The notes: generated from the sequence alone by a model not told the origin. A DNA stretch of 64,000 nucleotides from an uncultured Anaerolineaceae bacterium (GCA_964463505.1 CAYXDC010000002.1:28452-92451), one strand, 5' to 3'. Positions 2,978-19,345 are shown, counted from the first letter of the stretch. Translations and numbers: made by a program.

Positions 2978-3985
2978 TTAGATCTGACCGAGAAATAAAT
3001 CACGTCCTTTCACTAAAGCCGCCATTTTACTATCGGCTACCGTACGAGGCAGCATCCAAAAACCACAGTCGGGATGTACCCAACGGATACGCTCGGGTCC
3101 TAGTATCCGGTGACTCAGCTCGATGCGTCTGGCTACTAATTCAGGGGTTTCAATCTCGTTATCCTTAATATCGATCACACCCACCCCCATGGCGATATCA
3201 GGGCGTAGTTCCTTAAAAAGCTCCAACTCATCATAACCACGTCGAGCAAACTCCAATACCACGTGATCTACATTTAGATGGTTGAGGAACCCGAGCAGGT
3301 TGCGCCAAAGACCTTTTTGGATAGATTGCCCCCCATAGTTGCCAAAGCATAAATGCACAGCCTTTTCACCTTTTACAGACGAAAGAACATGGTTGATTGG
3401 TTCATGCGCCCAAGATGCGTCTTCAGGGTGCCCCGGAAGATTGGCTTCATCTACCTGCAAGATGCCAGTGTCAATGTCCGCCATCTGGCGGCGTATCACC
3501 TCGGCAATTGCCATAGCCAGCTCGCGTAGATCATGGTAATGCTCATCCACCAGGGTTTTGGCCAGCATATAAGGGGAGGTTACAGTAAATTTCAGCGGTT
3601 TGGGGGTCAGATTACCGACAAAGCGCCAGGCAGCTGGCAAGTTTAAGCTGCCTTCGCCAATCGGGCCGCGCACAACCCCGGCAGGTTGGCTGCGGAACGC
3701 CATGCCCGGACGATTCCGAAAGTCGTTTAATTCGGTGCGTGAAAGCTGGGTATTGACGTTTTCCATTGGCCGGATGAAATATTCGATCATTCCATTGGTT
3801 TCTGGATGGTTGGGGTCAAAACGGGAGAGTTCGCCGTCGCTGATCACATCCAGACCAGCTAATTCCTGAGTCTTAAGGACAACCAAGATAGCATCCCGCA
3901 AGTGTTGGGTAGTTGGGTACGCGCCTAACCAGGCGGGGATTGGGTAGCTGCCGACAACTGTGGTTTTCAGACTAGGTAAACTCAT
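2978..3985 (-). CDS. Single-barrel cobalamin-independent methionine synthase-like (MetE C-terminal/'core') Zn enzyme
   Basis: TTVVGSYP start, DVISDGE, QVDEA, Zn ligands HLCFG, VLEFA and HPDCG. ATG at 3985 follows SD AGAAAGGA. Confidence 0.85.
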   Translation of the reverse strand: MSLPSLKTTVVGSYPIPAWLGAYPTTQHLRDAILVVLKTQELAGLDVISDGELSRFDPNHPETNGMIEYFIRPMENVNTQLSRTELNDFRNRPGMAFRSQPAGVVRGPIGEGSLNLPAAWRFVGNLTPKPLKFTVTSPYMLAKTLVDEHYHDLRELAMAIAEVIRRQMADIDTGILQVDEANLPGHPEDASWAHEPINHVLSSVKGEKAVHLCFGNYGGQSIQKGLWRNLLGFLNHLNVDHVVLEFARRGYDELELFKELRPDIAMGVGVIDIKDNEIETPELVARRIELSHRILGPERIRWVHPDCGFWMLPRTVADSKMAALVKGRDLFLGQI

Positions 3986-4067
3986 GTGTGGTTCCTTTCT
4001 CATTCAAACGTAGACGATCATTTATTGATAAGGTAGACCTCGTCGCTGAAGCATTCCCGGTAAATGT

Positions 4068-4898
4068 TTAACTATGGCCTAAATAAGCCTGGATAATTCT
4101 TTCCAGGAATACTTCCTGATCCATTGCCCAGTAATGATTAGAGAAGATTTCTACCTCGTGAAAACCGTCGAATCCGGAATTTTCAATCCAGGTCCGGATC
4201 TGGCGCAGCGGGATACAGCCTTCACCCATCAGGCCGCGGTCATTAAGCAAGTCGGTGGTTGGTGATTTCCAGTCACAGATATGATAAGCGAAAATCCGCT
4301 GAGTATCCCCAGCGCGCTGGATCTCGACCTGTAAGTCGGGATCCCACCACAGATGATACACATCCACCACAACACCAAGGCTGGGGCTGTTGAATTGAGC
4401 ACATAACTCATTGGCCTGGCGCAGCGTATTGATTGCTGAGCGGGTGTCAGCATACATGGGGTGTAAGGCTTCAATACCCAGTCGAACGTCGCAGGCAGCT
4501 GCATGCGGTAGGATCGCGGCAATCCCTTCAACGATCTGCTGGCGAGATGTATGCAATGATTGGGATGGGTGGGCTCCAGGGACCAATACTAACAGGGGCG
4601 CACCCAGCTCGGCTGCTTGATCGATTGCTTTCCGGTTGTCATCGATGGCGCGTTGTTGTTGGGATATGTCAGTGGCAGGAAAGAAACCACCTCTGCAGAG
4701 CGAGATATCCTTTAATCCAGCGACGCGGATGTGGGTAGCAATCGCGCTCACAGAATGACCTTCTAAAGCCTGACGCCAGACGGTGATCGCACCGACAGAG
4801 CGCGCCGAAAGCTGCTCAATTGTTGTTTCAATCGGCCAGGGTTGGTGGGTGATGCTATGGATGCACAGGCGGGAGGTATCTCGGATCTGGGAAGGCAT
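4068..4898 (-). CDS. Sugar phosphate isomerase/epimerase-family TIM-barrel (xylose isomerase-like, AP endonuclease 2 fold)
   Basis: Metal motifs GIEALHP, VDVYH, YHICDW, GLMGEG and HEVEIF. The likely start is the ATG at 4898 after GGGAG; the ORF track extends to 5012. Confidence 0.85.
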   Translation of the reverse strand: MPSQIRDTSRLCIHSITHQPWPIETTIEQLSARSVGAITVWRQALEGHSVSAIATHIRVAGLKDISLCRGGFFPATDISQQQRAIDDNRKAIDQAAELGAPLLVLVPGAHPSQSLHTSRQQIVEGIAAILPHAAACDVRLGIEALHPMYADTRSAINTLRQANELCAQFNSPSLGVVVDVYHLWWDPDLQVEIQRAGDTQRIFAYHICDWKSPTTDLLNDRGLMGEGCIPLRQIRTWIENSGFDGFHEVEIFSNHYWAMDQEVFLERIIQAYLGHS

Positions 4899-4922
4899 GT
4901 AAACTGCTCCCTGACATTTAAC

Positions 4923-4995
4923 TTGACAAGCACTCTGTGGGTATGATACCATAGCAAAGACGACAATGGTAAACATTGTGCGATAATGGCGAACA
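4923..4995 (+). promoter_or_regulatory. Putative promoter (TTGACA-N18-TGnTACCAT) and candidate IclR operator palindromes in the divergent intergenic region
   Basis: TTGACA 4923-4928; TACCAT 4947-4952 with TG at 4944-4945; inverted repeat ACAATG-N5-CATTGT 4963-4979; TGTGCG-N7-CGAACA 4977-4995. Confidence 0.45.
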
Positions 4996-5041
4996 CGGTC
5001 GTTGCTGATCATCCATTTTAGTTACCTCATCACCACAGGGT

Positions 5042-5833
5042 TTGCCTTTGAAGACTCAACGCAAGGTTATCGGCTCTGTCCAGCGAGCGCTTGATATCTT
5101 GAATCTGTTTGAGGCTCAGGTCGTTGAGTTGGGGACCACGGAAATCGCGCGTGCCCTCAGCTTGCCGAAAAGCACCATCGCTGGCCTGGTGCATACCCTT
5201 GAGCTAAATGGTTACCTGAACCAAAATCCCGAGACTCGCAAATATTATCTGGGTTTCAAATTGGTCGAGCGCGCCGGTGTACTACTTGGTCAGTTTGATC
5301 TGCGTAAGATCGCCGCACCGGTATTGATGGCGCTGCGAGATGATACAAATGAGAGCGTAAACCTGGCGCTGCGCGATGGTAGCTATGTGGTTTATATTGA
5401 ACGCATGCATGGGATGAACATGCTAGGTATGCGCTCGGAAATTGGCAAGCGCGAGTTAGCGCATTCCACCGCATTAGGGAAATCAATGCTGGCTTTCTCG
5501 CCGGAACATATTCTAGATGACTTCCTAAAAACCCATCCTTTCGAACCGGTTACACCGCAGACGATTACCAGTCCTGCGGTGTTTCTTATTGAAATGAACC
5601 GCACCTGCCAGCGGGGCTTTGCAGTGGATGATCAGGAGAACGAGCTCGGTGGACGATGTGTCGCTGCGCCGATCTTTGATTATACCGGTCAAGTGGTTGC
5701 AGCAGTGAGTATTTCGGTGCCCATACAGCGCTTCCCAGATAGCCGTCTGGAATTATTAGGTGAGCGGGTAAAAGCAGCCGCGGCGGAGATTTCCCGCCGC
5801 TTGGGTGCTGCTCCGCTCCGTCGGTTGCCCTAG
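5042..5833 (+). CDS. IclR-family transcriptional regulator
   Basis: N-terminal 'SVQRALDILNLF...GTTEIARALSLPKSTIAGLVHTL' HTH; C-terminal 'HSTALGKSMLA' and 'GFAVDDQENELGGRCVAAPI'. Confidence 0.95.
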   Translation: MPLKTQRKVIGSVQRALDILNLFEAQVVELGTTEIARALSLPKSTIAGLVHTLELNGYLNQNPETRKYYLGFKLVERAGVLLGQFDLRKIAAPVLMALRDDTNESVNLALRDGSYVVYIERMHGMNMLGMRSEIGKRELAHSTALGKSMLAFSPEHILDDFLKTHPFEPVTPQTITSPAVFLIEMNRTCQRGFAVDDQENELGGRCVAAPIFDYTGQVVAAVSISVPIQRFPDSRLELLGERVKAAAAEISRRLGAAPLRRLP

Positions 5834-5857
5834 ACTCTTTGCCTGGCAATCAGGAGA

Positions 5858-7366
5858 GTGAACGTGGTTGATCAGGTAGTTGATGTAATTGTGGTTGGTG
5901 GCGGAGGAAGTGGATTGGCTGCGGCCGTTAGTGCAGCCAGTTTTGGGTTGCAGGTATTGCTACTGGAGAAGCAAGCTGAGTTGGGTGGCTCCACTGGAAT
6001 TGCAGTGGGCTCTCTGACCGCCAACCGCACCCGTCTTCAGGAAAAGGCTGGGATTATTGATACCCTGGATGCGCACGCTCTGGATGCAGGGCTTTTTGCG
6101 CCGCCCCAGATCGAAGATCGCAATAACGCCGAATTGCGCCGTTGGTTCTTGAGTCACAGCGCCGAAACGCTGCATTGGTTAATGGATATGGGGTTACAGT
6201 TCTATGGACCTAACCCGGAACCCCCCAACCGATTGCCGCGTATGCACAACGTGGTTCCAGGGGCGAAGGCTTATATTGCAACATTGCAAATCCGCTTACA
6301 GCGCCTGGGTGGGAAGGTATTGACGAACGCCCCGGTGGTGGACTTAATTAGTGAAGATGGGCGGGTGACAGGTGTGGTGGTTCAGGCAGAAAGCAAAATG
6401 GAGCGCTTCTTTGCCCGGCGTGGCGTAGTTCTAGCGGCGGGAGATTACGCCAATTCACCAGCAATCATTGCCCGGTTCAAAGGTAGCCAGTATTCAGAAA
6501 TCGAAGGTATAAATCCGCGTTCTACCGGGGATGGACATCTTCTGGCAGAAGCGGCTGGCGCCAGAATGATCAACATGGATATCACCTATGGCCCCGAGCT
6601 ACGTTTTATCCCACCCTCTGGACGGACTTTTCAACAATTACTCCCGGTGCGTGGTCCATTGGTTCAATTGATGGGCGGGGTCGTACCTTATCTGCCCAAT
6701 TTTGTGATGAGGGCCATGATTCGACGCCTGCTGGTCACCTGGCAGCATCCTGAGATTGCTCTATTTGACGATGGGGCGATCCTGATCAATCAACAAGGCC
6801 AACGTTTCTGTGATGAGCTGCAAACCCCGGAGCGCGAGATCGCTATTGCCCAACAGCCCGGTAAGTCAGCTTATATTCTGTTGGATCAAGGCCTGATCCA
6901 AAAATACAATCAATGGCCTCATTTTATTTCCACTGCTCCGAAGATAGGCTATGCCTATGTCGAGGATTATCTGAAATTGCGCCCGGATGTTGCGGTTCGG
7001 GCTTCTACCTTGCAGGGTTTGGCGGAAAAGCGTCGTCTACCCTTGGTGAATTTGGAACGCTCGGTACGAGAATACAACCATCAAGCGCAGGTGAATGGAC
7101 AGCGCGGTCTGGAAGACGGTGCGTGGGTTTTGCTTGGTCCGACGAAATCTTATTTCACCACTACTGAGGGGGGCGCGGCGATCAACCAGCGTTTCGAAGT
7201 GCTTGATATGGACAATTCGCCGATACCAGGTCTGTATGCAATAGGTCAAAATGGTCTGGGGGGACAAATCTTATGGGGCCATGGCTTACACATTGCTTGG
7301 GCGATTACCAGTGGTAGATTAGTAGGCGAATATCTTGCCGGCCTGCGGGCTGCTGAAAAGACCTGA
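5858..7366 (+). CDS. FAD-dependent oxidoreductase, fumarate reductase flavoprotein/3-ketosteroid dehydrogenase (FAD_binding_2) superfamily
   Basis: VIVVGGGGSGLAAA...LLEK dinucleotide fold, GVVLAAGDY, STGDG, GAILINQQGQRFCDE, PIPGLYAIG. Confidence 0.85.
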   Translation: MNVVDQVVDVIVVGGGGSGLAAAVSAASFGLQVLLLEKQAELGGSTGIAVGSLTANRTRLQEKAGIIDTLDAHALDAGLFAPPQIEDRNNAELRRWFLSHSAETLHWLMDMGLQFYGPNPEPPNRLPRMHNVVPGAKAYIATLQIRLQRLGGKVLTNAPVVDLISEDGRVTGVVVQAESKMERFFARRGVVLAAGDYANSPAIIARFKGSQYSEIEGINPRSTGDGHLLAEAAGARMINMDITYGPELRFIPPSGRTFQQLLPVRGPLVQLMGGVVPYLPNFVMRAMIRRLLVTWQHPEIALFDDGAILINQQGQRFCDELQTPEREIAIAQQPGKSAYILLDQGLIQKYNQWPHFISTAPKIGYAYVEDYLKLRPDVAVRASTLQGLAEKRRLPLVNLERSVREYNHQAQVNGQRGLEDGAWVLLGPTKSYFTTTEGGAAINQRFEVLDMDNSPIPGLYAIGQNGLGGQILWGHGLHIAWAITSGRLVGEYLAGLRAAEKT

Positions 7367-7387
7367 TAAAAAACGGAAGGGAAACTC

Positions 7388-8524
7388 ATGATCCAAAGAC
7401 CTGAGCGCGCGGTATTGCGCCCAAAACTTGAGATAGCTTTTGAGTTCGCCCAGCAGCAGGTGCGCGAGCTGATCACCAACCACCCACAGGTTTACCCCAT
7501 GTATACGGAAGGTGGTCAATGGAAGATCGGCGGAGAGACCTGGACTAACTGGTGTGAGGGGTTTCTTCCGGGGATGATGTGGATCTTCCATCGCAGGACA
7601 GGTGATCCGGATTGGCTTGCTGCTGCTGAGCACTATTCACGCCACCTGGAGGAGCGCAAGCACGACCGCACTGTCCATGATCTCGGCTTCTTGTTTTGGT
7701 CCACCTACAAACGCTGGTTCGACTTGACCGGTGATCCGGCCATCAACGAGGTAGTTATTACGGCGGGTAAGACGATGGGATACAGGTTCAAGGAGAAAGG
7801 CCAGTATCTGCGCTCATTTGTAGCGGATGAATCCCTGTTCATCGATATTATGATGAATGTGGGGATTGTTTTTTATGCTGCCTTGCAAAGCGGCGACGCC
7901 GATCTTTTACGTAAGGCTCACCAACATACCCTCACTACCCGGCGTTATCTGGTGCGTGGGGATGGCAGCACATCCCATGAAGGTATTTTTGACCTGGAGA
8001 CAGGTGAATTTTTGCGCCAGACTACACATCAAGGGTGGCGCGGAGATTCATCCTGGGCGCGGGGCCAGTCGTGGGCATTGTATGGCTTTGGCACCTGCTA
8101 TTATCTGACTGGCGACCGGCGTTATCTGGCTACGGCACGCCAGTGCGCTGACTTTTATATCGAGCAAACCCGTTTTGATGCCGCAGCTCCCTTTGGACCC
8201 GGTGTGCCGCCCAATGATTGGTTTGCTCCAACCAGTCAGGTGGAAAGCTCAGCAGCGGCTATAGCCGCCAGCGGCTTGATGAACCTGGCTGCCATATTAC
8301 AGGACCCGTTGTATGCCAACCTCTACTTGAGCGTTGCCCTGACCATTCTGGATACACTGTGCAGCCCAGAATATTTGGGTAAATTTACCCCCGGCTGGGA
8401 GGGTATCCTCAAACATGGCTGTTACCATATTAACAAAGGACTGGGCATGGATGAAAGTGTCATGTGGGGCGAATACTTCTTTGTGGAAGCCTTGCATAAA
8501 GCCTTATCGTTGGAGAACTGGTAA
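7388..8524 (+). CDS. ugl: Unsaturated glucuronyl hydrolase, glycoside hydrolase family 88
   Basis: WCEGFLPG, HDLGF (catalytic Asp88-equivalent), FIDIMMNV (Asp149-equivalent), SWARGQSWALYGF, ESSAAAIAASG, WGEYFFVEAL. No signal peptide. Confidence 0.9.
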   Translation: MIQRPERAVLRPKLEIAFEFAQQQVRELITNHPQVYPMYTEGGQWKIGGETWTNWCEGFLPGMMWIFHRRTGDPDWLAAAEHYSRHLEERKHDRTVHDLGFLFWSTYKRWFDLTGDPAINEVVITAGKTMGYRFKEKGQYLRSFVADESLFIDIMMNVGIVFYAALQSGDADLLRKAHQHTLTTRRYLVRGDGSTSHEGIFDLETGEFLRQTTHQGWRGDSSWARGQSWALYGFGTCYYLTGDRRYLATARQCADFYIEQTRFDAAAPFGPGVPPNDWFAPTSQVESSAAAIAASGLMNLAAILQDPLYANLYLSVALTILDTLCSPEYLGKFTPGWEGILKHGCYHINKGLGMDESVMWGEYFFVEALHKALSLENW

Positions 8525-9304
8525 ATGAGCAGTCAAAGAGTCGCTATCGTGACCGGAAGCAGCCGTGGGATCGGCCGGGGAATTGCCCTGAGTCTGGCAG
8601 AGCGTGGCTGGGATATCATTATAAACTATCACAGCAATGCTGCTGCGGCTGAAGAAGTGCGCCTGGCGGTGCAGGGCTTGGGAACACATGCTTTGCTGGT
8701 GCAGGCTGATCTTGCTAACCTGGCAGACCTGAACCATATGGTGGATGCGACCCTGGAACGCTATGGACGGATTGACCTGCTGGTTAATAATGCCGGCGTG
8801 GGACCGCGCCAGCGTGTGGATTTACTCTCCACTACTGTCGAGAGCTACGACGAAGTTATGGCAACCAACCTGAGAGGCCCTTTCTTTCTTACCCAGCGCG
8901 TTGCCAATGAGATGATCGCTCAATTACAGGCCGGCAAGATCAGTACAGCCCACATTGTCAATATTGGCTCGATTAGCGCCTACACCAGCAGCCCATCGCG
9001 AGCTGAGTACTGCATCAGCAAGGCTGGCGTGGGTATGCTGACGATTGTATTCGCCGACCGCCTGGCAGAGTATGGGATTAACGTGTACGAAATCCGCCCG
9101 GGGATCATCGCCACCGACCTGACCAGCGTGGTCAAGGTGAAGTACGATCGCATGATCTTCGAGGAAGGCTTGACGCCAATCCGGCGTTGGGGCCAGCCGG
9201 AAGACGTGGCCAAAGCAGTGGTTGCAGTTGCCGAGGGCTTGCTGCCGTACTCCACCGGTGAAGTGATTAATGTGGATGGGGGTTTTCACCTCCATCGTTT
9301 GTAA
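8525..9304 (+). CDS. Short-chain dehydrogenase/reductase (PRK12745-like '3-ketoacyl-ACP reductase' subfamily)
   Basis: TGSSRGIG, VNNAG, S...YCISK catalytic motif, VYEIRPGIIATD, DGG terminus. ATG directly follows the GH88 stop codon. Confidence 0.9.
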   Translation: MSSQRVAIVTGSSRGIGRGIALSLAERGWDIIINYHSNAAAAEEVRLAVQGLGTHALLVQADLANLADLNHMVDATLERYGRIDLLVNNAGVGPRQRVDLLSTTVESYDEVMATNLRGPFFLTQRVANEMIAQLQAGKISTAHIVNIGSISAYTSSPSRAEYCISKAGVGMLTIVFADRLAEYGINVYEIRPGIIATDLTSVVKVKYDRMIFEEGLTPIRRWGQPEDVAKAVVAVAEGLLPYSTGEVINVDGGFHLHRL

Positions 9305-9326
9305 CCAATCCAATTCAAGGAGCACA

Positions 9327-10364
9327 ATGATGGCACGCGTGGTTACTTTTGGCGAGATCATGATGCGCCTCTCACCCCCTGGACAGCAGCGTTTCACACA
9401 GGCGCGTAACTTTGAGGCGATCTATGGGGGCGGAGAGTCAAATGTAGCTGTGTCGTTAGCAAATTTCGGTGTAGCAGCGGAGTTTGTCAGCCGCTTGCCC
9501 AAAAATGATATTGGGGAAGCCTGCCTGCAATTCTTGCGCCAGTATGGGGTTGGAACAAGCCACATCTTGCGCGGCGGCGAGCGGCTGGGAATATATTTCC
9601 TGGAGCATGGCGCTGTGCAGCGCGGGAGCTCGGTGATTTATGACCGGGCGGGATCATCCCTGGCAACCATCCAGCCAGGCATGGTGGCATGGGATGCGGT
9701 CTTCGAAGGCGTTGACTGGTTCCATTGGACTGGCATTACCCCGGCCATTTCTCAAGGGGCAGCAGAAGCCTGTCTCGAGGCTGTGCAGGTGGCAAAAGCC
9801 ATGGGATTGACGGTCTCCACCGATTTGAATTATCGTGCCAAGCTGTGGAAGTGGGGCCGTCCGGCCAGCGACGTCATGCAGGAGTTAGTCGCCTACTGCG
9901 ATGTGACCATCGGCAATGAAGAAGATGCTGCCAAAGTTTTTGGTATTCACGCCCCGGAAACCGACGTCACATCTGGGAAAGTTGAAGCCGACCAATATCG
10001 TTTTGTGTGCGAGCGTCTGGCAGAGCGCTTTCCTAACTTGAAAACTATCGCCATTACCCTGCGCGGCTCGCTCTCAGCCAGCCATAATACCTGGAGCGCG
10101 GTGCTCTGGCACACCGGTGAGCTGTATTTTGCCCCTACTTACGACATTACTCACATTGTAGACCGGGTAGGCGGCGGCGACAGTTTTGTAGGCGGACTGA
10201 TCTATGGCCTGTTGACCTATACCGGGGATATGGACAAAACCATTCGTTTTGCTGTAGCAGCCTCGGCGCTTAAACACACCATTTTTGGTGATTTCAACCT
10301 GGTCAGTGTTGCCGAAGTTGAAAAGTTGATGGCGGGCGACGCCTCCGGGCGCGTCAGCCGCTAA
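9327..10364 (+). CDS. kdgK: 2-keto-3-deoxygluconate kinase (PfkB family)
   Basis: TFGEIMMRLS, GGGESNVA, DLNYRAKLW, DRVGGGDSF. SD AAGGAG before ATG 9327; adjacent to the KDPG aldolase gene. Confidence 0.9.
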   Translation: MMARVVTFGEIMMRLSPPGQQRFTQARNFEAIYGGGESNVAVSLANFGVAAEFVSRLPKNDIGEACLQFLRQYGVGTSHILRGGERLGIYFLEHGAVQRGSSVIYDRAGSSLATIQPGMVAWDAVFEGVDWFHWTGITPAISQGAAEACLEAVQVAKAMGLTVSTDLNYRAKLWKWGRPASDVMQELVAYCDVTIGNEEDAAKVFGIHAPETDVTSGKVEADQYRFVCERLAERFPNLKTIAITLRGSLSASHNTWSAVLWHTGELYFAPTYDITHIVDRVGGGDSFVGGLIYGLLTYTGDMDKTIRFAVAASALKHTIFGDFNLVSVAEVEKLMAGDASGRVSR

Positions 10365-10389
10365 ACCAAACCACCATAAGGAGTGCTGG

Positions 10390-11076
10390 ATGGCGAAATA
10401 CAGTCGCCTCAATGTATTGAATAGCATGGTTGAAACAGGCATGGTGCCGGTTTTTTATCATGCTGATATTGAAGTCGCTACAAAAATCGTGCGGGCGCTG
10501 GCCGAAGCCGGGGTGCGTTGTTTTGAATTTACCAACCGTGGCGACCAGGCACACCTGGTGTTTCAGGAGCTGTACCGGCGTTTTGCCGGTGATAGGCGCG
10601 TGATCCTGGGAGCAGGTTCGATCCTCGATCCGGCTACGGCTGCCTTGTATATCCAGCTGGGCGCCAATTTTATCGTTGGACCGGTGCTTAACCCTGAAGT
10701 GGCTAAGGTCTGCAACCGGCGCAAGATCGCTTATTCTCCGGGCTGCGGCAGCCTGAGTGAAGTTTCTGCCGCTGAAGAGCTGGGGGTTGAAATTTGTAAA
10801 GTTTTCCCCGGCAAAGAAGTTGGCGGACCAGGTTTTGTAGAAGCTTTGCGTGGACCGATGCCCTGGACCTATATTATGCCAACGGGCGGTGTGGACCCCA
10901 GCGAAGAAAGCATTAACGCCTGGATCAAAGCAGGCGTGGCCTGTGTGGGTATGGGCAGCAAGCTGGTACGCAAGGATTTGATTGCAGCAGGCGATTACGC
11001 TGAAATGACGCGTCTGGCAGGACTGACCCTGGGCTGGATACAGACTGCCCGCCAACAACATCCCATATTCTGGTAA
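10390..11076 (+). CDS. eda: 2-dehydro-3-deoxy-phosphogluconate / 4-hydroxy-2-oxoglutarate aldolase
   Basis: [22 protein letters not shown], Schiff-base Lys in CKVFPG, MPTGGV. Confidence 0.92.
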
Positions 11077-11095
11077 TAACCTGAAAGGAGTGAGC

Positions 11096-12556
11096 ATGGC
11101 TAAGCCCTATTTACGTGTGGCGCGCATGAAAACTGCGCAGGATTTCCGTGATTATGTGGCTGAACTGGGAATTTACCTGCCCCTGGATGAGAAGGTTGAA
11201 CCGGCGCCAGATGGCGCCCTGGCTCAGACGTATACCCTGAAAACTGGGCGGGTCATCGGCAACCGTTTTAGCATCCTCCCCATGGAAGGTTGGGATGGCA
11301 CGCCAGATGGCTTGCCAACGGAATATACCCTGCGGCGCTGGACAAATTTCGGGCGCAGTGGGGCCAAATTGATCTGGGGTGGCGAAGCAGTTGCGGTGCG
11401 CCATGATGGGCGCGCCAACCCCAACCAGCTGATGATCAACCAGCATACCCTGGGCGGGCTGGCAGATCTGCGCCAGGCGCTGGTTGGCGCCCACCAGGCT
11501 CAGATGGGGAGCACAGACGACTTGCTGGTTGGTTTGCAGCTCACCCACTCTGGACGATTTTCACGCCCCAATGAAAAAAAACGCCTCGAGCCGCAAATCC
11601 TCTACCACCACCCGTTGCTTGAGCAGATCTATAAAATTGACCCCAATTTGCCGGTGATGACAGACGCTCAAATTGAAGATCTTATCGCCGACTATGTGCG
11701 CGCCGCCGGTCAAGCCCACGCCTTGGGTTTTGATTTTGTTGATCTAAAACATTGTCATGGCTACCTGGGGCACGAATTCCTGTCGGCGCGCTCTCGACCT
11801 GGCCCATATGGGGGCAGTTTTGAAAACCGTACACGATTCCTGCGGGAGCTGGTGGCGGGTATCCGCCGTGATGTACCCGGGTTGTTGCTGGGCGTGCGCT
11901 TTAGCGCCTATGATTTCCCGCCCTTCCGCCCAGGACCGGATGGGGTAGGTGTCGTGCAGGATTATCGGGATATTAATGGCAGGTACCCATTTGCCTTTGG
12001 CGGCGATCAAAATGATACGCTCACGATCGATCATAGCGAGCCGCGCCGCTTCCTCGAGCTGCTCCAGTCTTTGGAGATTGAATTGGTGAACCTCTCGGCT
12101 GGCAGCCCGTATTACAACCCGCATATGCAGCGCCCGGCTTATTTTCCACCTTCGGATGGTTACCAACCTCCGGAAGACCCGCTGGTCAGTGTCGCCCGGC
12201 AAATCAATAATGCGGCAACTTTGAAGGCTTCGTTCCCAGACCTGGCGATCGTGGGCACCGGATACAGCTATCTGCAAGACTGGCTGCCGCATGTAGGACA
12301 ATACGCCGTGCGTACAGGAATGGTCGATTTTGTTGGTTTGGGGCGCATGGCTCTGGCTTACCCGGAAATGCCAGCCGATGTGTTGGCCGGCAAGCCGCTG
12401 GACCGCAAGCGCATTTGCCGCACATTTAGCGATTGTACGACTGCGCCGCGCAATGGGATGATTTCAGGTTGTTTCCCACTGGACGATTTCTACAAAGCCC
12501 TGCCAGAGGCCGAACAGGTCAAGCAGGTTAAGGCTGAACAAAAACTGGCCAGTTAA
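11096..12556 (+). CDS. NADH:flavin oxidoreductase (Old Yellow Enzyme-like FMN TIM barrel)
   Basis: [69 protein letters not shown] 11096 after AAAGGAG. Confidence 0.88.
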
Positions 12557-12571
12557 CCATGGAGGTCTAGA

Positions 12572-14188
12572 TTGCGCGTTGTTGATTTCTCTACTGCCGT
12601 CCAGCTGGTGCAGGATGGTGATACGATCCTGATTGGTGGTTCCGGCGGCGGGCATGCCGTGCCAGAGAAGCTGATCATGAGCCTGGCAGAACGCTTTCAC
12701 AGCACTGCGAGCCCGCGTGGGATTACGCTACTGCACCCCGTGGGCTTGGGAGATATGGCTTCGCAGGGCGTTGACCGTCTGGCGCATCCAGAGCTATTGA
12801 AGCGCATTATCACTGGCGCTTTGGTCAATACCCCGGCGATCCAGGAGATGGCTCGCCAGGATCAGGTGGAAGCCTATACGCTGCCGCAAGGCTCGCTATC
12901 CCAGCTCATGCGCGAGATGGCTGCCGGGCGTCCGGGCTTGATCTCACATGTCGGTTTGCACACCTTCGTCGATCCGCGCTACGGCGGAGGCCGGCAAAGC
13001 CCATCGGCTCGGGAAGCCCTGGTGGAGCTGGTCGAAATTGCCGGGCGGGAGTGGCTGTTTTATAAGCCAATGCATGTAGATATAGCTTTTTTGCGCGGCA
13101 CCACTGCCGATGAAGATGGCAATATCACGATGGAGCAAGAAGCCATATTTGGCGAGATGCTTTCCATGGCCCAGGCTGCCCGGCGCAGCGGGGCTGTAGT
13201 GATCGTCCAGGTGGCTCGGCTGGCCCAGCGTGGCAGCCTGCCACCCAAGCAGGTGAAGATTCCTGGTATGTTGGTTGATCTTGTAGTCGTGGACCCCGAA
13301 CAGCGCCAGACATACGTGACCCAATACAGCCCGGCTTATGCAGGTGAGCTGCGTGTACCGCTCAACGCGATTCCGGCGCTGCCATTTGATCCTCGCAAAG
13401 TGATTGCCCGGCGCGCGGCCCTGGAATTGTTTCCCGGCGCCGTCTGCAATCTAGGCGCAGGCGTATCCACGGGGATCGCCAATGTCGCCGCAGAAGAAGG
13501 TTTTTTGCAGGATATTGTGCTCACCAACGAACAGGGGCTGATTGGCGGGGCGCCTGCCTCGGGCGTGGATGCTGGGGCAGCCATTAACTATGATTCCATT
13601 ATAGACCAACCTTACCAGTTCGATTTTTACGATGGAGGCGGACTCGACCTGGCTTTCCTGTCTTTCGCACAGGTCGATCCGCAGGGCAGTGTTAATGTCA
13701 GCCGCTTCGGTGAGAAAGTGATCGGTGTGGGTGGATTCCAGAATATTGCCCAGAATGCCAAGACGATCGTGTTTAGCGGTACTTTTACGGCCGGACGGCA
13801 GGAGATCACCTGGGAAAATGGACAGATGATAATCCGGGCAGACGGGACGCATCAGAAGTTTGTTGCTCAGCTCGATCAGGTCTCGTATAGCGGCGCACAC
13901 GCCCAGTCCATCGGCCAACGTGCCTTGTATATCACCGAGCGGGCGGTCTTCCAGCGTGGCCCCCAGGGTTTGGAATTGATTGAGCTGGCTGCGGGTGTGG
14001 ACCTGGAACGCGATGTTTTGGCAAAGATGGGTTTCCGCCCGCAAATAGCCGCGCATGTCAAAATCATGGATCAGCGCCTGTTTCACCCGCGCGGGATGGA
14101 ATTTGCAGCCGAGTTACGCGCCCGGCCGCGCTTGAATTTGCCAGAACGCTTGCGGAGCGCGGACTGGCTGGAAGGAGTGACACCATGA
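12572..14188 (+). CDS. Family I acyl-CoA:acetate/3-ketoacid CoA-transferase (fused alpha/beta, YdiF/Pct-like)
   Basis: GTTADEDGNITME, CNLGAGV, catalytic Glu in LTNEQG, FDFYDGGGLDLAFL, GVGGFQNI, ITERAVF. Confidence 0.92.
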   Translation: MRVVDFSTAVQLVQDGDTILIGGSGGGHAVPEKLIMSLAERFHSTASPRGITLLHPVGLGDMASQGVDRLAHPELLKRIITGALVNTPAIQEMARQDQVEAYTLPQGSLSQLMREMAAGRPGLISHVGLHTFVDPRYGGGRQSPSAREALVELVEIAGREWLFYKPMHVDIAFLRGTTADEDGNITMEQEAIFGEMLSMAQAARRSGAVVIVQVARLAQRGSLPPKQVKIPGMLVDLVVVDPEQRQTYVTQYSPAYAGELRVPLNAIPALPFDPRKVIARRAALELFPGAVCNLGAGVSTGIANVAAEEGFLQDIVLTNEQGLIGGAPASGVDAGAAINYDSIIDQPYQFDFYDGGGLDLAFLSFAQVDPQGSVNVSRFGEKVIGVGGFQNIAQNAKTIVFSGTFTAGRQEITWENGQMIIRADGTHQKFVAQLDQVSYSGAHAQSIGQRALYITERAVFQRGPQGLELIELAAGVDLERDVLAKMGFRPQIAAHVKIMDQRLFHPRGMEFAAELRARPRLNLPERLRSADWLEGVTP

Positions 14189-15000
14189 GCGATAGTCCAG
14201 GGACATCGGATCGTATCGAGTGGGATGCCATCGAAGTGACACTACCGCGCCCGGGCGTCGCTCTGATGAGCATTGTCTCTCAGCCTTTGGGCGTGCTGCG
14301 GCATGCTGTCAAGCGCGCCATGCTGGCCCGCCTGGCAGAGTTGGAAGGCGACCGGCGCGTGCGCTGTGTGGTGTTGACCGGGGTTGGGAAGGCTTTTTCG
14401 GTTGGGTCTGACATCCGCGATTTTAGCGTGGAGATTGGCTGGTTGTTAGAAAATGATTATGTCGAGGCCGGGCTGAATGCAGCCATTGAAAACTCGCCAC
14501 TACCAATCATTGCTGCACTTAACGGGCATGCTTTAGGGGGTGGGGCTGTACTGGCCCTGGCGTGTGATATTCGAGTGGCTGGCGAATCCTGCAAGATGGG
14601 TTTCCCAGAAGTGAAAGTTGGGGCGTTTGCATCTGGTAGCGGTACGCAGCGCTTGCCGCGCCTGGTAGGGCGCGGGCGGGCATTGGATTTACTGCTGACC
14701 GGGCGCAGCATTACAGCTGCTGAGGCCCTGGCTTTTGGACTGGTGGAATATGTTGTCCCAGACGAGGAGCTGCTGGACTTCAGCCTCACCCTGGCAGAGG
14801 GGATCGCTGCCAATGCCGCCGGGGCAGTCAGCGCCAGCAAGCGTTGTGTGAATGAAGGCTTGCGTCTGGGATGGGAGGCTGGCCTGGAGTTGGAGCGTGA
14901 ACTGCGCATCCAGACAGGCAGGGGGCGAGACGCGCAAGAAGGTCGCCAGGCATTTATTGAAAAACGCCCTGCGCGCTTTAACCAGGAACCGGAGGCCTAG
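14185..15000 (+). CDS. Enoyl-CoA hydratase/isomerase (crotonase) family protein
   Basis: KAFSVGSDI oxyanion loop, IAALNGHALGGG, FPEVKVG, GTQRLPRLVG, AFIEKRPA. Confidence 0.92.
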   Translation: MSDSPGTSDRIEWDAIEVTLPRPGVALMSIVSQPLGVLRHAVKRAMLARLAELEGDRRVRCVVLTGVGKAFSVGSDIRDFSVEIGWLLENDYVEAGLNAAIENSPLPIIAALNGHALGGGAVLALACDIRVAGESCKMGFPEVKVGAFASGSGTQRLPRLVGRGRALDLLLTGRSITAAEALAFGLVEYVVPDEELLDFSLTLAEGIAANAAGAVSASKRCVNEGLRLGWEAGLELERELRIQTGRGRDAQEGRQAFIEKRPARFNQEPEA

Positions 15001-15003
15001 CGC

Positions 15004-15936
15004 ATGCGCCTGGCGATGTACAACCAGCGAGGGCAAGCGCGCGTGGGGGCGCTGCTCAAAACCCGGACTGTTCAGCGCGCCCAGCTAGTAGATCTATTGC
15101 GTGCTGCACGCCTGTTACGGTATGTGAAGCCGTTGCCAAATTCAATGGACCAGCTGCTTGCCGGGGGTGCTTTATATCTGGATTCTGTGCGCCAATTCAT
15201 GGCAAATATTGATAACTTGCCAGATAGCGAGCTCAGAGCACTGGCAGAGGCTGATGCGCTATTGGATCTTGCTAAAGCTGACTTGCTCCCGCCTGTGTCA
15301 AAGCCGGGCAAGATAATCTGTGTGGGGTTGAATTATCCGATACCTGGCGGCGTTGCCCAACCTGCGCAAGTTTATCCGGTGATATTTCTAAAGCCTACCA
15401 GTACACTGCTGGGTTCTGGTGGGCGCGTGATCATGCCGCACACCAGCCGTGAAATTGCTGGGGAAACTGAGCTGGTGGTCGTAATCGGTCGTTACGGCAG
15501 GCATATTTCTGTCGAGCAGGCCCTCGAATATGTCGCCGGTTATACCCTGGCGATGGATATCGGGGCGCGTGATTGGGAAGCGCGCACGACACAGTGGACT
15601 TCTGGTAAGCTGGGTGATACTTTTACACCCCTGGGTCCAATCCTGCTCACCGCGGACGAAATACCCGATCCTTCAGGAGTTGAGTTATCCCTCACGATAA
15701 ACGATAGCATTTCATTACGCGGCCGTACCAGCCAGATGATTTTCGGGATTCCGGCGCTGATCGCCTATCTATCAGAAATCGCGACCTTGCAGCCCGGAGA
15801 TATCATCCTGACCGGTAGCCCCAAAGGCGTGGATGACCAGTCGCGTGGGCCGGTGTTGTTGAGCGCGGGCGAGCGCTTGCTCGCCACAGCCAGCGGCCTG
15901 GGTCAGTTGGTCGTGGATGTGGTTCAGGAGGAGTAA
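15004..15936 (+). CDS. Fumarylacetoacetate hydrolase-family protein
   Basis: KIICVGLNY, FLKPTS, GETELVVVIG, DIGARDW, GKLGDTFTPLGP, LQPGDIILTGSP. Confidence 0.9.
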   Translation: MRLAMYNQRGQARVGALLKTRTVQRAQLVDLLRAARLLRYVKPLPNSMDQLLAGGALYLDSVRQFMANIDNLPDSELRALAEADALLDLAKADLLPPVSKPGKIICVGLNYPIPGGVAQPAQVYPVIFLKPTSTLLGSGGRVIMPHTSREIAGETELVVVIGRYGRHISVEQALEYVAGYTLAMDIGARDWEARTTQWTSGKLGDTFTPLGPILLTADEIPDPSGVELSLTINDSISLRGRTSQMIFGIPALIAYLSEIATLQPGDIILTGSPKGVDDQSRGPVLLSAGERLLATASGLGQLVVDVVQEE

Positions 15937-15940
15937 GCGT

Positions 15941-16987
15941 ATGTCAAAAACGCGCCTAATGGCGATCGTTACCGCTCCCGGGAAAGTGGAGATATTAGAA
16001 CGGCCTCTGCCAGAACCCGGCCCGACCGAAGTGCAGCTGCGCGTGCGTGCTGTGACCCTGTGTGGTGGGGACATGCATATCTTTGCCGGTAAGCACCCGT
16101 CTGTGTCGCTGCCAGTCCCCATTGGGCATGAGATTGCCGGGGACGTGGTTGCGTTAGGAGAGAAAGTGACCCGCTTGCAGATCGGGGACCGGGTGACGGT
16201 TGAGCCGGTAATCGCATGCGGAAAGTGCTATTTCTGCCAGCGTGGTCAATATCATTTTTGCACCTCCATCAGCTTTCAATATCGCCGCGGACAGGGTGGG
16301 GTGACCACAGATTTTATCGTGGATGAGCGTTGGGCGCACCGCTTACCTGCCGCGGCTACATATACCGAAGGAGCTTTGTTGGAGCCGTTGGCAGTAGCAG
16401 TGCATGCAGTCCAAAAAGCTGATCTCCGCCTGGGGCAGAGCGTGGCGATTTTTGGCGCTGGGGCAATTGGCTTGTTGGTGCTGCAACTGGCGCAGCAGGC
16501 CGGCGCCGGGCAGGTGCTGATCACGGATGTACGTCCAGCGCGTCTGGAGATGGCTCGCCAACTGGGTGCCAGCGCAGCATTGAACAGCCTGGATGGTGAT
16601 GTGCTGGCAGAGATCGCAGCTCTCACAGATGGCCTGGGTGTAGACCGAGCCTTTGAAGCGGTTGGTTTACAGGTTACCCTGGTCCAGGCATTGAAAGCGC
16701 TGCGCAAGGGCGGGCGGGCTGTACTGGTTGGGCTGTTTGAACAGGATGAGCTAACAATCCCAGCCAATATTTTCGTGCACCGTGAGATCGAGCTGTCTGG
16801 GTCACAAGGTTATTGCTGGGATTTTCAAACCGCCATCCAATTCCTGGCGCTGGGAAAGGTGGATTTGCAGCGCCTGATAACGCATGTATACCCCATGGAT
16901 CAAGTTCAGGCGGCGTTTGATACCCTGGCGGATCGTCAGTCTGGAGCAGTGAAGGTTGTCATCCAGATAGGTGACAATAGTTCTTGA
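15941..16987 (+). CDS. Zn-dependent medium-chain (sorbitol/L-threonine-like) dehydrogenase
   Basis: CGGDMH, GHE, structural Zn CGKCYFCQRGQYHFC, GAGAIG. ATG 15941 after GGAGGAG. Confidence 0.92.
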   Translation: MSKTRLMAIVTAPGKVEILERPLPEPGPTEVQLRVRAVTLCGGDMHIFAGKHPSVSLPVPIGHEIAGDVVALGEKVTRLQIGDRVTVEPVIACGKCYFCQRGQYHFCTSISFQYRRGQGGVTTDFIVDERWAHRLPAAATYTEGALLEPLAVAVHAVQKADLRLGQSVAIFGAGAIGLLVLQLAQQAGAGQVLITDVRPARLEMARQLGASAALNSLDGDVLAEIAALTDGLGVDRAFEAVGLQVTLVQALKALRKGGRAVLVGLFEQDELTIPANIFVHREIELSGSQGYCWDFQTAIQFLALGKVDLQRLITHVYPMDQVQAAFDTLADRQSGAVKVVIQIGDNSS

Positions 16988-17040
16988 CAGATGTCTCTGG
17001 TTTTTTATATAATTCGTTAGCGCTAACGGCAACGCTAACG
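16984..17040 (+). promoter_or_regulatory. Consensus sigma70 promoter (TTGACA-N18-TATAAT) followed by a LacI-type operator CGTTAGCGCTAACG
   Basis: TTGACA 16984-16989, TATAAT 17008-17013, perfect 14-bp palindrome 17015-17028, extra half-site CGCTAACG 17033-17040. Confidence 0.8.
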
Positions 17041-17137: not shown

Positions 17138-18160
17138 ATGAATGTGAAGGAAAGGTTCTTGAAAGCTCTGCATCTGGAGGCCGTTGATCGCCCACCTGTG
17201 GCTGCTGTGGCTACCGGGATTACCGTTCAGATGATGGAAAAGGTAGGGATTTATTGGCCTGAAGCGCACAGCGACCCCGACCTATTGGCAGGTCTGGCTG
17301 AATCGATCTGGGTGCATACCAATATCGAGTGCATGAAGCTACCCTTTGATATGGTGGTTGAGGTTGAGGCACTGGGTGCCCAAATCAATTACCGCACTCG
17401 AGATACTCTGCCCACTGAAGTTGGGCATTTATACAATCATCCCGATCAACTCACCATCCCCAAGAATTTCTTTGATCTAGGGCGTGTCCCTACTGTTCTC
17501 AAAGCGATTCATTCCCTGCGCAAACGCTACGATGAGGAAGCACCGATCGTCTCCTCGATTGTAGGTCCGTTCTCAATCGCCGGGAAACTGTTCGGATTTG
17601 AGAATTTCTTGATCTGGATCATAACTAACCCGGAATTGGTCCACCAGGCGATGGCTGCCTTGACCCCCCTGGCAATCGCCTATGCCAATGCGCAGATTGA
17701 GGCAGGGGCCGATGCTATCATTATTGGGGAGGCTTCTTGCACAGGCGACCTGATTTCTCCGTTTACCTACCGTGATTTAATCGCTCCCTATCATGGCCAG
17801 CTCTGTCCGGCGATCCAAGGCCCAACAATCATGCATATCTGTGGCAAGTCCACTCGCCATACACCTTTCCTGGCCGATATCGGCACCAACTGTTACAACT
17901 TCGACGAAGGGGTGGATATTCAGGTCGCTGTACATAATTTAAAAGGCAAGGTCGCCCTGGCTGGTTATGTGCCGACTGTAAAAGTACTGCTTAATGGAAC
18001 CCCTGAGGATGTATATCGGTCCACGATGGAATGCCTGGATAATGGAGTGGATATGGTGACCCCGGGTTGCGCCATGGCCCCCTATACACCACTTGAAAAT
18101 ATTGCTGCGATGACGCAGGCAGTTCGGGATTGGAAACCTAACCCAACCGCTGTAGGATAG
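17138..18160 (+). CDS. MtaA/CmuA-family methylcobamide:thiol methyltransferase-like protein (UroD superfamily)
   Basis: KERFLKAL...VDRPPV, YWPEAHSDP, EVEALG, GRVPTVLKAI, GPFSIAG, Zn motif MHICG...TPGCA. Confidence 0.85.
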   Translation: MNVKERFLKALHLEAVDRPPVAAVATGITVQMMEKVGIYWPEAHSDPDLLAGLAESIWVHTNIECMKLPFDMVVEVEALGAQINYRTRDTLPTEVGHLYNHPDQLTIPKNFFDLGRVPTVLKAIHSLRKRYDEEAPIVSSIVGPFSIAGKLFGFENFLIWIITNPELVHQAMAALTPLAIAYANAQIEAGADAIIIGEASCTGDLISPFTYRDLIAPYHGQLCPAIQGPTIMHICGKSTRHTPFLADIGTNCYNFDEGVDIQVAVHNLKGKVALAGYVPTVKVLLNGTPEDVYRSTMECLDNGVDMVTPGCAMAPYTPLENIAAMTQAVRDWKPNPTAVG

Positions 18161-18208
18161 GCGGGTTGGTTAATTCGAATAGATGAACGGACAAAAATAG
18201 AGGTATAT

Positions 18209-19345
18209 GTGAGCCGGATTGCGCGTGTGGAAGTTGGTCGCTATGATTATGTCTTTGCCGGGGCATTTAAATTCTTCAAACCCGGAAAAGATGGAGTGGT
18301 CCGCCGTCCAACCGTGTTTGTCCGCCTGACCGATGAGGCTGGCTTGCAGGGTTGGGGACAGGCTGTGCCAGTGCCCACCTGGACTTACGAGACGGTTGAG
18401 ACTGTGGAAAGCACCTTAACTAACTACCTGGCTGAGGCAGTGCTGGGCGCGGACCCAGATGACCTTTCCGAGGTCCACCGGCGCATGGACTATGCTATCC
18501 GTCCGGGGTTCTCAACCGGACAGCCGATCGCCAAAGCTGCCCTGGACCTGGCTTGCTACGATCTGGTTGGGAAGCGGGAAGGCGTTCCCGTCGCCAATCT
18601 CTTGGGTGGAGCCCGCCGCGATGCAATTCGCTTGAATTGGACTTTAAATGCTCTCACATTGGCGGAGGCTGAAATCCAATTGGAAAAAGCACGCATCGGC
18701 GGTTTTGGCCACTTCAACATCAAAGTTGGTCCACCACAAACACCGGAATATGACTTGGAGTTGGTGCGCCTTGTGCGTCGGGAATTCCCCGATACATTCC
18801 TGTGGGTGGATGCCAATACCGGCTATCGCCTGGAGACCGCTCTTGACATGCTGCCAAAATTTGCCGCAATGGGCGTTCAGGCAATTGAATCTCCCCTACC
18901 TCCTAACCAATTACGTGGCTATCAGGCACTAAAGAAAAATGGCGCGGTGCCCATCTATATGGATGAAGGTATTATTTCACCAGTAGAGACGGCCGAGTTC
19001 ATCGCTTTGGAGATGTTCGACGGAGTGACCTTGAAGCATGCGCGGTCGGGTGGCTTGTGGCAAGCTCAACAGATTATTCGCCTGGTTAAAGAGGCCGGGT
19101 TGCAATTGCTTGGCTCTGGCCTCACCGATCCGGATTTATCATTGGCAGCCGCGTTGCATTTGTATGCCTGGGCAGATATCGACCGTCCATGCGCTTTAAA
19201 TGGACCACAGTTTATTGGCGAGACCCTGGTAAAGGATGGCTACAGTATTCAAGGTGACTTGATCTTCCTTCCCACCGGGCCTGGTCTGGGGATTGAATTG
19301 GACGAGAAAGCCCATTCGGTCCTGCGCGTTGCAGCGGAAGCCTAA
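18209..19345 (+). CDS. Enolase-superfamily enzyme, muconate cycloisomerase (MLE) subgroup
   Basis: GWGQA, AALDLACYDLVGK, FNIKVG, VDAN, IESP, MDEG, LKHARSGG, PTGPGLG. Confidence 0.88.
   Translation: MSRIARVEVGRYDYVFAGAFKFFKPGKDGVVRRPTVFVRLTDEAGLQGWGQAVPVPTWTYETVETVESTLTNYLAEAVLGADPDDLSEVHRRMDYAIRPGFSTGQPIAKAALDLACYDLVGKREGVPVANLLGGARRDAIRLNWTLNALTLAEAEIQLEKARIGGFGHFNIKVGPPQTPEYDLELVRLVRREFPDTFLWVDANTGYRLETALDMLPKFAAMGVQAIESPLPPNQLRGYQALKKNGAVPIYMDEGIISPVETAEFIALEMFDGVTLKHARSGGLWQAQQIIRLVKEAGLQLLGSGLTDPDLSLAAALHLYAWADIDRPCALNGPQFIGETLVKDGYSIQGDLIFLPTGPGLGIELDEKAHSVLRVAAEA

Follow-up and report, generated by a model that had tools for sequence, protein, structure and literature searches.

A GH88 unsaturated-uronyl hydrolase homologue in a lyase-free operon of an uncultured Anaerolineaceae bacterium may act on an enol ether formed through a coenzyme A thioester

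The closest described counterparts of the system considered here are the unsaturated-uronyl hydrolase (UGL) of Bacillus sp. GL1 and the streptococcal ugl-dhuI-dhuD-kdgK-kdgA cluster. With the KduI/KduD route of pectin and glycosaminoglycan degraders it shares the expected intermediate, 5-keto-4-deoxyuronate, and the final steps from 2-keto-3-deoxygluconate (KDG) through KdgK to Eda. GH88 genes serve as annotation markers for growth on lyase-cleaved acidic polysaccharides. We analysed a 64,000-nucleotide stretch of DNA from an uncultured Anaerolineaceae bacterium (GCA_964463505.1, CAYXDC010000002.1:28452-92451; hereafter the window), in which a GH88 gene is followed by genes for a short-chain dehydrogenase/reductase (SDR), a PfkB kinase and a 2-keto-3-deoxy-6-phosphogluconate (KDPG) aldolase. 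The window resembles the Bacillus and streptococcal systems in full-length GH88 homology, the pair of catalytic aspartates and the -1 subsite, and, as in the streptococcal cluster, a cytoplasmic GH88 is clustered with a putative KDG kinase and a KDPG aldolase. Unlike them, it has no DhuI/KduI-type isomerase, no phosphotransferase or sugar ABC system, and an SDR that is not a KduD/DhuD equivalog, and it carries an old yellow enzyme (OYE)-like flavoprotein and a coenzyme A (CoA) module in the same operon. The presence of GH88 in a lyase-free operon suggests that in bacteria this enzyme can receive its substrate by a route that involves no polysaccharide lyase.

The GH88 gene (7388-8524, plus strand; P0001) is the sole GH88 copy in the metagenome-assembled genome (MAG). 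Its Pfam match is weak and partial (PF07470, 36.8 bits against a cut-off of 26.6, residues 50-235), and a phmmer comparison with the Bacillus sp. GL1 UGL (1vd5) gave E 1.1e-43 over residues 39-370, which amounts to full-length homology at about 35% identity. The protein thus shows homology over the whole (alpha/alpha)6 domain together with a PF07470 score above the gathering threshold, as expected of a GH88 member. D98 and D153 align with D88 and D149 of UGL, the position being fixed by the D88N mutant 2ahf, and both catalytic aspartates are in place within the HD-x-GF and I-D-x-M-M-N motifs. Across 84 sequences W55, F59, H97, D98, D153, R225 and W229 were invariant, H197, Q215, Y346 and H347 were kept in 81-83, and the UGL residues were retained in all three GH88 clades described below; the non-catalytic -1 subsite residues, including the carboxylate-binding Arg, presumably have the roles assigned to them in the UGL literature. 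Judged by sequence, the assignment as a genuine UGL-type enzyme with both catalytic aspartates and all -1 subsite residues is well supported. The N-terminus (MIQRPERAVLRPKLEIAFEF...) has no hydrophobic stretch and no signal peptide, and the open reading frame (ORF) cannot be extended upstream, which bears out an earlier reading of this DNA, the first-pass annotation, in describing the enzyme as lacking a signal peptide.

The four genes named in that annotation, for GH88, SDR, PfkB kinase and KDPG aldolase, are all present and co-directional. The SDR gene (8525-9304, plus strand; PF13561/PF00106; NF009386, 324.7 bits against 250) is translationally coupled to GH88, its start being the base directly after the GH88 stop codon (0-nt gap), and at 165 bits against the kduD cut-off of 339 its product is not a KduD equivalog. 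The KDG-type sugar-acid kinase gene (9327-10364, plus strand; PF00294) lies in an ORF that opens at 9270, with the probable start at ATG 9327 behind AAGGAG (ribosome-binding site and ATG at 9317-9329). Its best match, at 522 bits, was NF041633, a model of an aldolase-kinase fusion of which it covers the kinase half and whose cut-off of 700 applies to the whole fusion; the haloarchaeal KDG/KDGal kinase model gave 236 bits, below cut-off, so that no NCBIfam cut-off was reached. The KDPG/KHG aldolase (Eda; 10390-11076, plus strand) reached equivalog level (NF005499, 323.9 bits against 275) and is the sole KDPG aldolase found in the MAG, as a single tblastn match.

We then considered the canonical pathway and lyases in the whole genome. 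The MAG comprises 3.46 Mb in 165 contigs and is 88.6% complete, and absences are therefore bounded by the roughly 11% of the genome that is unassembled. The window itself contains no sulfatase, no KduI or KduD and no lyase of the PL families represented in Pfam; this confirms the corresponding statement of the first-pass annotation. In the MAG, KduI (PF04962) gave no match while the controls were positive, no SDR exceeded the kduD cut-off (TIGR01832; best 208 bits against 339), which sets the organism apart from users of the KduI/KduD route, and no PL8, PL6 or PL1 gene was found, nor any PL7 gene in a search run without a positive control. At genome scale the earlier statement thus holds for KduI, the KduD equivalog and PL1/6/7/8, but one sulfatase (contig C29) and one Hepar_II_III gene (contig C8) are present. 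The latter was rejected as the missing lyase, since its neighbours, a GT4 glycosyltransferase gene and a gene for an ADH-GFO fusion, point to a context of the exopolysaccharide-synthesis type. A KduD-like SDR on contig C87 was likewise set aside because its neighbours, thiolase, HpcH and Tat genes, form an unrelated context. On these searches, the lack of a canonical isomerase, reductase or lyase in the assembled genome appears well supported.

The GH88 gene belongs to an operon of 11 genes (5042-16987) in the order IclR regulator, FAD flavoprotein, GH88, SDR, PfkB, Eda, OYE-like protein, CoA-transferase, crotonase, FAH-family hydrolase and zinc-dependent alcohol dehydrogenase (Zn-ADH). The intergenic gaps from first to last gene are -35 to 25 nt as called, and taking 9327 as the start of PfkB narrows this range to -20 to 25 nt. 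Terminator-like sites in the operon were no commoner than in shuffled sequence, and a strong promoter occurs only after Zn-ADH, where a 150-nt gap follows and a perfect TTGACA-18-TATAAT lies at 16984-17013. Beside GH88, PfkB and Eda, the operon encodes a fused family-I CoA-transferase of the YdiF type (12572-14188, plus strand; PF01144; PDB 2ahu YdiF, E 3e-131), the only YdiF-type transferase in the MAG, and a crotonase-fold enzyme (14185-15000, plus strand; PF00378), a combination also found in clade B below. A regular expression for a catalytic SENG-type motif found no match in the CoA-transferase, the position of YdiF Glu333 not having been mapped. In the crotonase the first catalytic Glu is missing (GGGAVLAL) and the second is kept (FPEV), so the protein retains the proton-abstracting Glu and not the Glu that handles water.

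Homologues of the GH88 at 70-96% identity are very numerous, and the named ones come from Chloroflexota (Caldilineae, Anaerolineales). For comparison we scored homologues of the window genes in 83 loci, comprising 80 genomic loci (55-70% identity, at least seven phyla) and three metagenome loci. Longest-ORF gene calling in high-GC loci let antisense ORFs hide GH88 or SDR in some of them, and because of this masking the locus counts rest on direct BLAST matches. In the GH88 tree, gene context tracks clade, and three clades, A, B and C, were distinguished.

Clade A holds 29 entries including the window, and its named members are all Chloroflexota. An SDR orthologue of 54-72% identity lies directly 3' of GH88 in 26 of these 29 loci; of the three exceptions, two are truncated by the end of a contig, whereas L011 is a distant homologue at 45% identity. 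The earlier choice of the SDR as the obvious candidate beside GH88 is therefore supported, and on these comparative data the SDR as the firmest partner in the clade is well supported. An OYE-like gene adjoins GH88-SDR in 15 clade-A loci, and PfkB, Eda, CoA-transferase and crotonase are present in the sublineage of the window. The order IclR-GH88-SDR-PfkB-Eda-OYE-CoA-transferase-crotonase-FAH-ZnADH is kept on long contigs of Chloroflexota relatives at 70-84% GH88 identity. A third clade-A layout was seen in Caldilineaceae (L043, L056, L058, L059, L072), where GH88-SDR stands amid four different xylose-isomerase-like TIM-barrel genes and a 2-hydroxyacid dehydrogenase gene, with no OYE or CoA genes. 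At L011/L012:10001-11796, a GH88 homologue of 45-47% identity is paired solely with an Eda-like aldolase in an otherwise unrelated neighbourhood, and in some homologues that are more remote still (P0134, P0135, P0143, P0147) one or both of the catalytic aspartates have been lost.

Clade B, the sister of clade A, comprises nine loci from Verrucomicrobiota, two actinobacterial lineages, Deinococcota, Dormibacterota and Chloroflexota. Here GH88 always stands beside a crotonase, and usually also beside a YdiF-type CoA-transferase, an aldehyde dehydrogenase (ALDH) and one to three cytoplasmic GMC oxidoreductases; GFO, Eda, PfkB, a LacI regulator and a CUT1 sugar ABC system usually complete the set. 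In L088 the stop and start codons overlap at nearly every gene junction. The CoA-transferases that adjoin GH88 are 38-45% identical to that of the window, and the crotonases have both catalytic Glu residues, reading GGGLELAL and PEV. The GFO protein is an orthologue of 1,5-anhydro-D-fructose reductase (AFR; 2glx, E 6e-91; next match 105 bits), one GMC protein scores above the cut-off for the choline-dehydrogenase subfamily, and the closest matches of the ALDH are betaine-aldehyde and semialdehyde dehydrogenases. Of five clade-B genomes, two have no KduI/IolB-family gene, one of them being a 1.3-Mb actinobacterium. As the simplest single pathway, the clade-B genes could be read as alcohol to aldehyde to acid to CoA ester to 2-enoyl-CoA, followed by GH88, a keto-deoxy acid, and kinase plus aldolase. 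The pyranose 2-enoyl-CoA would be a 4,5-enol ether next to a carboxyl group, the form that GH88 needs. By stereochemical reasoning, GH88 hydration of a 1,5-anhydro-mannitol skeleton would give KDG directly, which would explain why KduI and KduD are not needed.

Clade C (Acidobacteriota, Planctomycetota, NC10) has none of the partner genes of clades A and B. In its Acidobacteriota a translationally coupled ORF of 430-470 aa with no Pfam match precedes GH88 (L079:8697-9977, L078:8562-9974), and an ORF of about 800 aa, also with no Pfam match, follows GH88 on the other strand at L078:11206-13557; both may encode hitherto unknown GH88 partner enzymes.

The association of this GH88 subfamily with CoA-transferase/crotonase pairs in different phyla is thus well supported by genomic context, and the clade-B pathway would carry over to the window operon only partly. 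A functional link of the CoA genes to GH88 is indicated because they are coupled in the same operon, because the transferase is the only one of YdiF type in the genome, and because the same two enzyme families recur in two GH88 clades. The first-pass annotation had considered the CoA module apart from these genes; the comparative data link a CoA-transferase and a crotonase to this GH88 subfamily. We tentatively favour, at somewhat short of an even chance, the reading that GH88 opens a small 4,5-enol-ether uronate made inside the cell through a CoA thioester, with the SDR replacing KduI and KduD.

What was observed comprises the identities of the genes, the conservation of catalytic residues and of gene partnerships, the layout of the operon and the lack of the canonical genes; from this we infer the substrate, the order of steps and every activity as follows. 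The IclR-controlled cytoplasmic operon would convert a small carboxylated pyranoid compound to pyruvate and glyceraldehyde-3-phosphate without any polysaccharide lyase. The YdiF-type CoA-transferase would load the substrate carboxylate onto CoA, and the crotonase-fold enzyme would use the thioester to take the alpha-proton (C5) and expel the C4 substituent, yielding the 4,5-enol ether normally made by lyases; the OYE-like flavoprotein may assist here or trim another enone. Once CoA had been passed on, GH88 (Asp98, Asp153, Arg225) would hydrate the enol ether, and opening of the ring or glycosidic bond would give 5-keto-4-deoxyuronate, or 2-keto-3-deoxyhexonate directly. The coupled SDR, perhaps with the TIM-barrel protein described below, would set the redox and stereochemical state to KDG in place of KduI and KduD, and the PfkB kinase and Eda would complete the route. 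The FAH-family hydrolase and Zn-ADH would form a non-phosphorylative side branch of 4-dehydrogenation followed by hydrolysis; such a branch, resembling the L-rhamnonate/L-fuconate routes, could serve the L-threo isomer arising from plain aldehyde reduction. Candidate substrates of the Chloroflexota form might be 4-O-methylglucuronate, simple glucuronides, and pyranone or anhydro-uronate compounds. With a little less confidence, we extend the proposal to the subfamily as a whole, whose GH88 proteins may be ring-opening enol-ether hydratases of an undescribed lyase-free sugar-acid route (CoA loading, crotonase C4 elimination, GH88 hydration) and not glycosidases for lyase products, the Chloroflexota form having SDR and OYE in place of AFR, GMC and ALDH.

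Several observations weigh against a CoA-assisted route. Most clade-A loci consist of GH88-SDR(-OYE) with no CoA-transferase within 10 kb, which implies that the CoA module is not indispensable to GH88 in this clade. The front end of clade B is missing from this genome, because homologues of AFR and GMC and a close homologue of ALDH are lacking in the MAG: a tblastn comparison with the L088 proteins found AFR and ALDH matches of at best 26-32% identity and nothing for GMC. The window crotonase is only about 35% identical to the clade-B enzymes and has no first catalytic Glu, and for both reasons it may be an isomerase and not an eliminase. The -1 subsite of the window GH88 is identical to that of classical UGLs. 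Our literature search found no description of uronyl-CoA; it also returned no paper joining GH88 with a CoA-transferase or crotonase, none on a glucuronide 3-dehydrogenase and none on the pathway read from the clade-B genes. Finally, the sulfatase, NagA, NagB, UxaC and UxaE genes with an Opp-type ABC importer on contig C29 fit the scavenging of glycosaminoglycan-like fragments.

The C29 genes form one minus-strand operon (C29:24267-37015; L008 and L100:15075-16238) that runs off the contig end and encodes Opp-type ABC ATPases, a sulfatase, NagA-like and NagB-like proteins, a GDSL esterase, two URO-D-like proteins, an aldo-keto reductase, a GFO protein, UxaC and UxaE. From these genes the organism is predicted to handle saturated hexuronates and, probably, sulfated amino-sugar fragments. 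The UxaC/UxaE route must end at the window KdgK and Eda, because this Eda is the only copy in the MAG.

The C29 operon therefore makes plain scavenging of the lyase products of other organisms credible, and this is the alternative that survives best, although we regard it as doubtful. The GH88 would then be an ordinary cytoplasmic UGL that frees 4-deoxy-L-threo-5-hexosulose uronate from imported unsaturated oligosaccharides, the SDR with the TIM-barrel protein or another isomerase would be a non-orthologous KduI/KduD, much like the streptococcal DhuI/DhuD, KdgK and Eda would finish the pathway, and the OYE, CoA, FAH and ADH genes would serve another, co-regulated process. The active site is the same as in the Bacillus UGL; the Bacillus and streptococcal UGLs are cytoplasmic too and are not encoded next to their lyases; the C29 gene set fits sulfated N-acetylhexosamine-uronate fragments; and Eda must in any case also serve the UxaC/UxaE route. 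The scarcity of the CoA module in clade A is a further point in favour of this explanation. However, no isomerase of a known type is available, GH88 lies outside the C29 operon, and the CoA genes are translationally coupled within the GH88 operon. CoA-transferase and crotonase genes also flank the sister-clade GH88 across at least four named phyla. Stereochemical reasoning further indicates that reduction of the L-threo product by the SDR alone would yield the wrong stereoisomer for KdgK and Eda. The transporters adjacent to clade-A operons are also of other types, namely HAAT (Peripla_BP_6) in three lineages and NMT1 in two, the window NMT1-type system lying 4 kb downstream in the next operon. 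Both families carry small molecules and not oligosaccharides, and PDB searches with the HAAT and NMT1 binding proteins for clues to their ligands returned only distant or unspecific matches.

Both scavenging and the CoA-assisted route that we favour could draw on an isomerase, and the first-pass annotation had proposed a TIM-barrel protein and a cupin as non-orthologous replacements. The xylose-isomerase-like TIM-barrel gene (4068-5012, minus strand; PF01261, 132.7 bits) is divergent from the operon, and the best PDB relatives of its product are the uncharacterised 'sugar isomerase' entries 3qc0/3ju2 (252 bits). Genes of this type occur within 2.5 kb of GH88 in 10 of the 83 loci, all Chloroflexota, and belong to two unrelated subfamilies, the orthologue of the window gene being adjacent in five loci and the other subfamily in five more. 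The gene is, however, absent beside operons that are 84% identical. The presence near GH88 thus speaks weakly for a replacement role, and the protein is a candidate aldose-ketose isomerase whose connection to the pathway is a weak link. The cupin (23706-24050) did not hold up as a KdgF or KduI substitute: it lies 12.6 kb away in another operon, and a homologue is found near GH88 in one of 83 loci. Its only strong PDB relative is uncharacterised, it gave no KdgF or KduI sequence match, and it is not orthologous to the cupin near the operons of relatives. A single-barrel MetE-like gene (window 2978-4003; also L002/L004/L013) accompanies the divergent TIM-barrel gene in five loci, and in L002 and L004 genes for a 2-hydroxyacid dehydrogenase and an FGGY kinase join the two.

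It is also conceivable, but improbable, that GH88 acts first and that OYE, CoA-transferase, crotonase, FAH and Zn-ADH act downstream, the target being either an organic acid set free as the aglycone or the keto-deoxy product. The latter case would be a KduI-independent route of aldehyde reduction, 4-dehydrogenation, FAH hydrolysis to pyruvate and glycerate, and handling of the C3 acid at the CoA level. The FAH-family hydrolase (15004-15936, plus strand; PF01557, 191 bits) is nearest to the 2,4-didehydro-3-deoxy-L-rhamnonate hydrolase model (164 bits, below cut-off). The SDR and the Zn-ADH (15917-16987, plus strand; PF08240 + PF00107), the latter resembling threonine-3-dehydrogenase and scyllo-inosose-3-dehydrogenase below their cut-offs, would be available for 4-dehydrogenation. 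The single-Glu crotonase and the FadH-like OYE recall the isomerase/reductase pair of unsaturated acyl-CoA handling, YdiF-type transferases act on short acids, and HAAT binding proteins often carry organic acids. Yet no enzyme of the set scored above a curated cut-off for such roles, and the clade-B genes for the transferase, crotonase and ALDH lie upstream of and beside GH88 together with one for an alcohol oxidase, an arrangement that reads better as substrate preparation. An assembly artefact, with canonical kduI, kduD and a lyase in the missing part of this fragmented and incomplete MAG (C29 itself ends inside a relevant operon), is very unlikely, as related complete or long contigs show the same operon with no kduI or kduD nearby and the two clade-B genomes mentioned above also have no KduI/IolB-family gene.

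The remaining genes of the operon and its surroundings were also characterised. A promoter-like site (TTGACA-18-TACCAT with an extended TG, 10/12 matches; 4923-4952, plus strand), a consensus match only, precedes the gene for the IclR-family regulator (5042-5833, plus strand; PF09339 + PF01614). The regulator is nearest to the NCBIfam models BhcR and KdgR, both below cut-off, and its position is conserved in L002, L004, L013, L098 and L099. The next gene encodes an FAD_binding_2 flavoprotein of the Frd/KstD superfamily (5858-7366, plus strand; PF00890, 151.8 bits). No homologue of it was found in the 83 related loci or in the 84%-identical operons, so the gene is a recent insertion specific to this genome, and we rejected it as a conserved desaturase partner.

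The OYE-like protein (11096-12556, plus strand) is an atypical OYE-family flavoprotein of 486 aa that matches PF00724 over residues 56-275 only. OYE homology is limited to residues 43-276, and the protein has no NADPH/FAD domain. In an alignment with XenA, Lys replaces the first substrate-binding His; the protein retains the second His and the Tyr (K-H-C-H-G-Y), and its tail carries C-x5-C-x11-C. Relatives that possess the corresponding regions also show conservation of the motifs D-[LIV]-K-H-C-H-G-Y and CRTFSDC...C, and all 120 homologues bear generic names only. The protein could reduce an enone in a pyranone-type substrate or act on an enoyl thioester.

The next operon (window 17138-31077) starts at the perfect TTGACA-18-TATAAT and is of the LacI type. 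It includes a LacI regulator, two URO-D/MtaA-like genes, two GFO oxidoreductases, the NMT1-type ABC transporter, the small cupin, a clear enolase-superfamily gene at 18209 with a weaker match at 28648, and an ORF of 488 aa (19355) for which Pfam gave no match. URO-D-like genes also flank the GH88 operons of relatives L009, L021, L098 and L099.

Other described systems share single features with the window. In the alginate route a DEH reductase (DEH, 4-deoxy-L-erythro-5-hexosulose uronate), itself an SDR, leads straight to KDG, so that a single SDR suffices with no isomerase, as in the window layout. That route works solely for the L-erythro isomer from mannuronate or guluronate, and it differs from the window in that its monomers are released by exolyases and not by GH88; no alginate lyase was found in the MAG, the PL7 search having no positive control. 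In carnitine metabolism, CaiB and CaiD, a CoA-transferase and a crotonase-fold dehydratase, remove a beta-substituent from a CoA-activated acid, with CoA recycled between product and substrate. They differ from our proposal in three respects: CaiB belongs to transferase family III, the acid acted on is not a sugar acid, and there is no subsequent enol-ether hydratase. The clade-B AFR operons (L088, L061, L030) share with the window the invariant GH88 residues, the YdiF-type CoA-transferase, the crotonase, PfkB and Eda; unlike them, the window has SDR, OYE, FAH and Zn-ADH instead of AFR, GMC oxidase and ALDH, a one-Glu crotonase, IclR instead of LacI, and no CUT1 sugar transporter.

The first-pass annotation held that GH88 substrates are normally made by lyases, a premise that proved too strict. 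The PL37 oligosaccharide dehydratase P29_PDnc of Formosa agariphila, which works with a GH105 enzyme, forms a 4,5-unsaturated uronate at the non-reducing end by loss of water without cleaving the chain (PMC8511951). This pair resembles the CoA-assisted route in providing a lyase-free unsaturated uronate for a GH88/GH105-type hydrolase, although P29_PDnc has a PL fold and is cofactor-free, whereas the window candidates are a CoA-transferase and a crotonase.

Members of the GH88 subfamily described here share about 70% identity across the Chloroflexota of sludge and soil, and relatives occur in at least six further phyla. If so large and conserved a subfamily does work without lyases, the use of GH88 as a marker of lyase-cleaved polysaccharides would be wrong for these organisms. 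A sugar-acid CoA thioester used for beta-elimination would, if real, be a new biochemical strategy, and such an elimination would explain the mineralisation of ring-locked or 4-O-substituted uronates. Even on a conservative reading, the SDR, with an OYE or TIM-barrel partner, would add a third and non-orthologous way of accomplishing the KduI/KduD step. Set against the known systems, the window operon is a variant of the GH88-KDG funnel, and its new part is the clade-A form, in which SDR and OYE are combined with FAH and a crotonase that has a single Glu.

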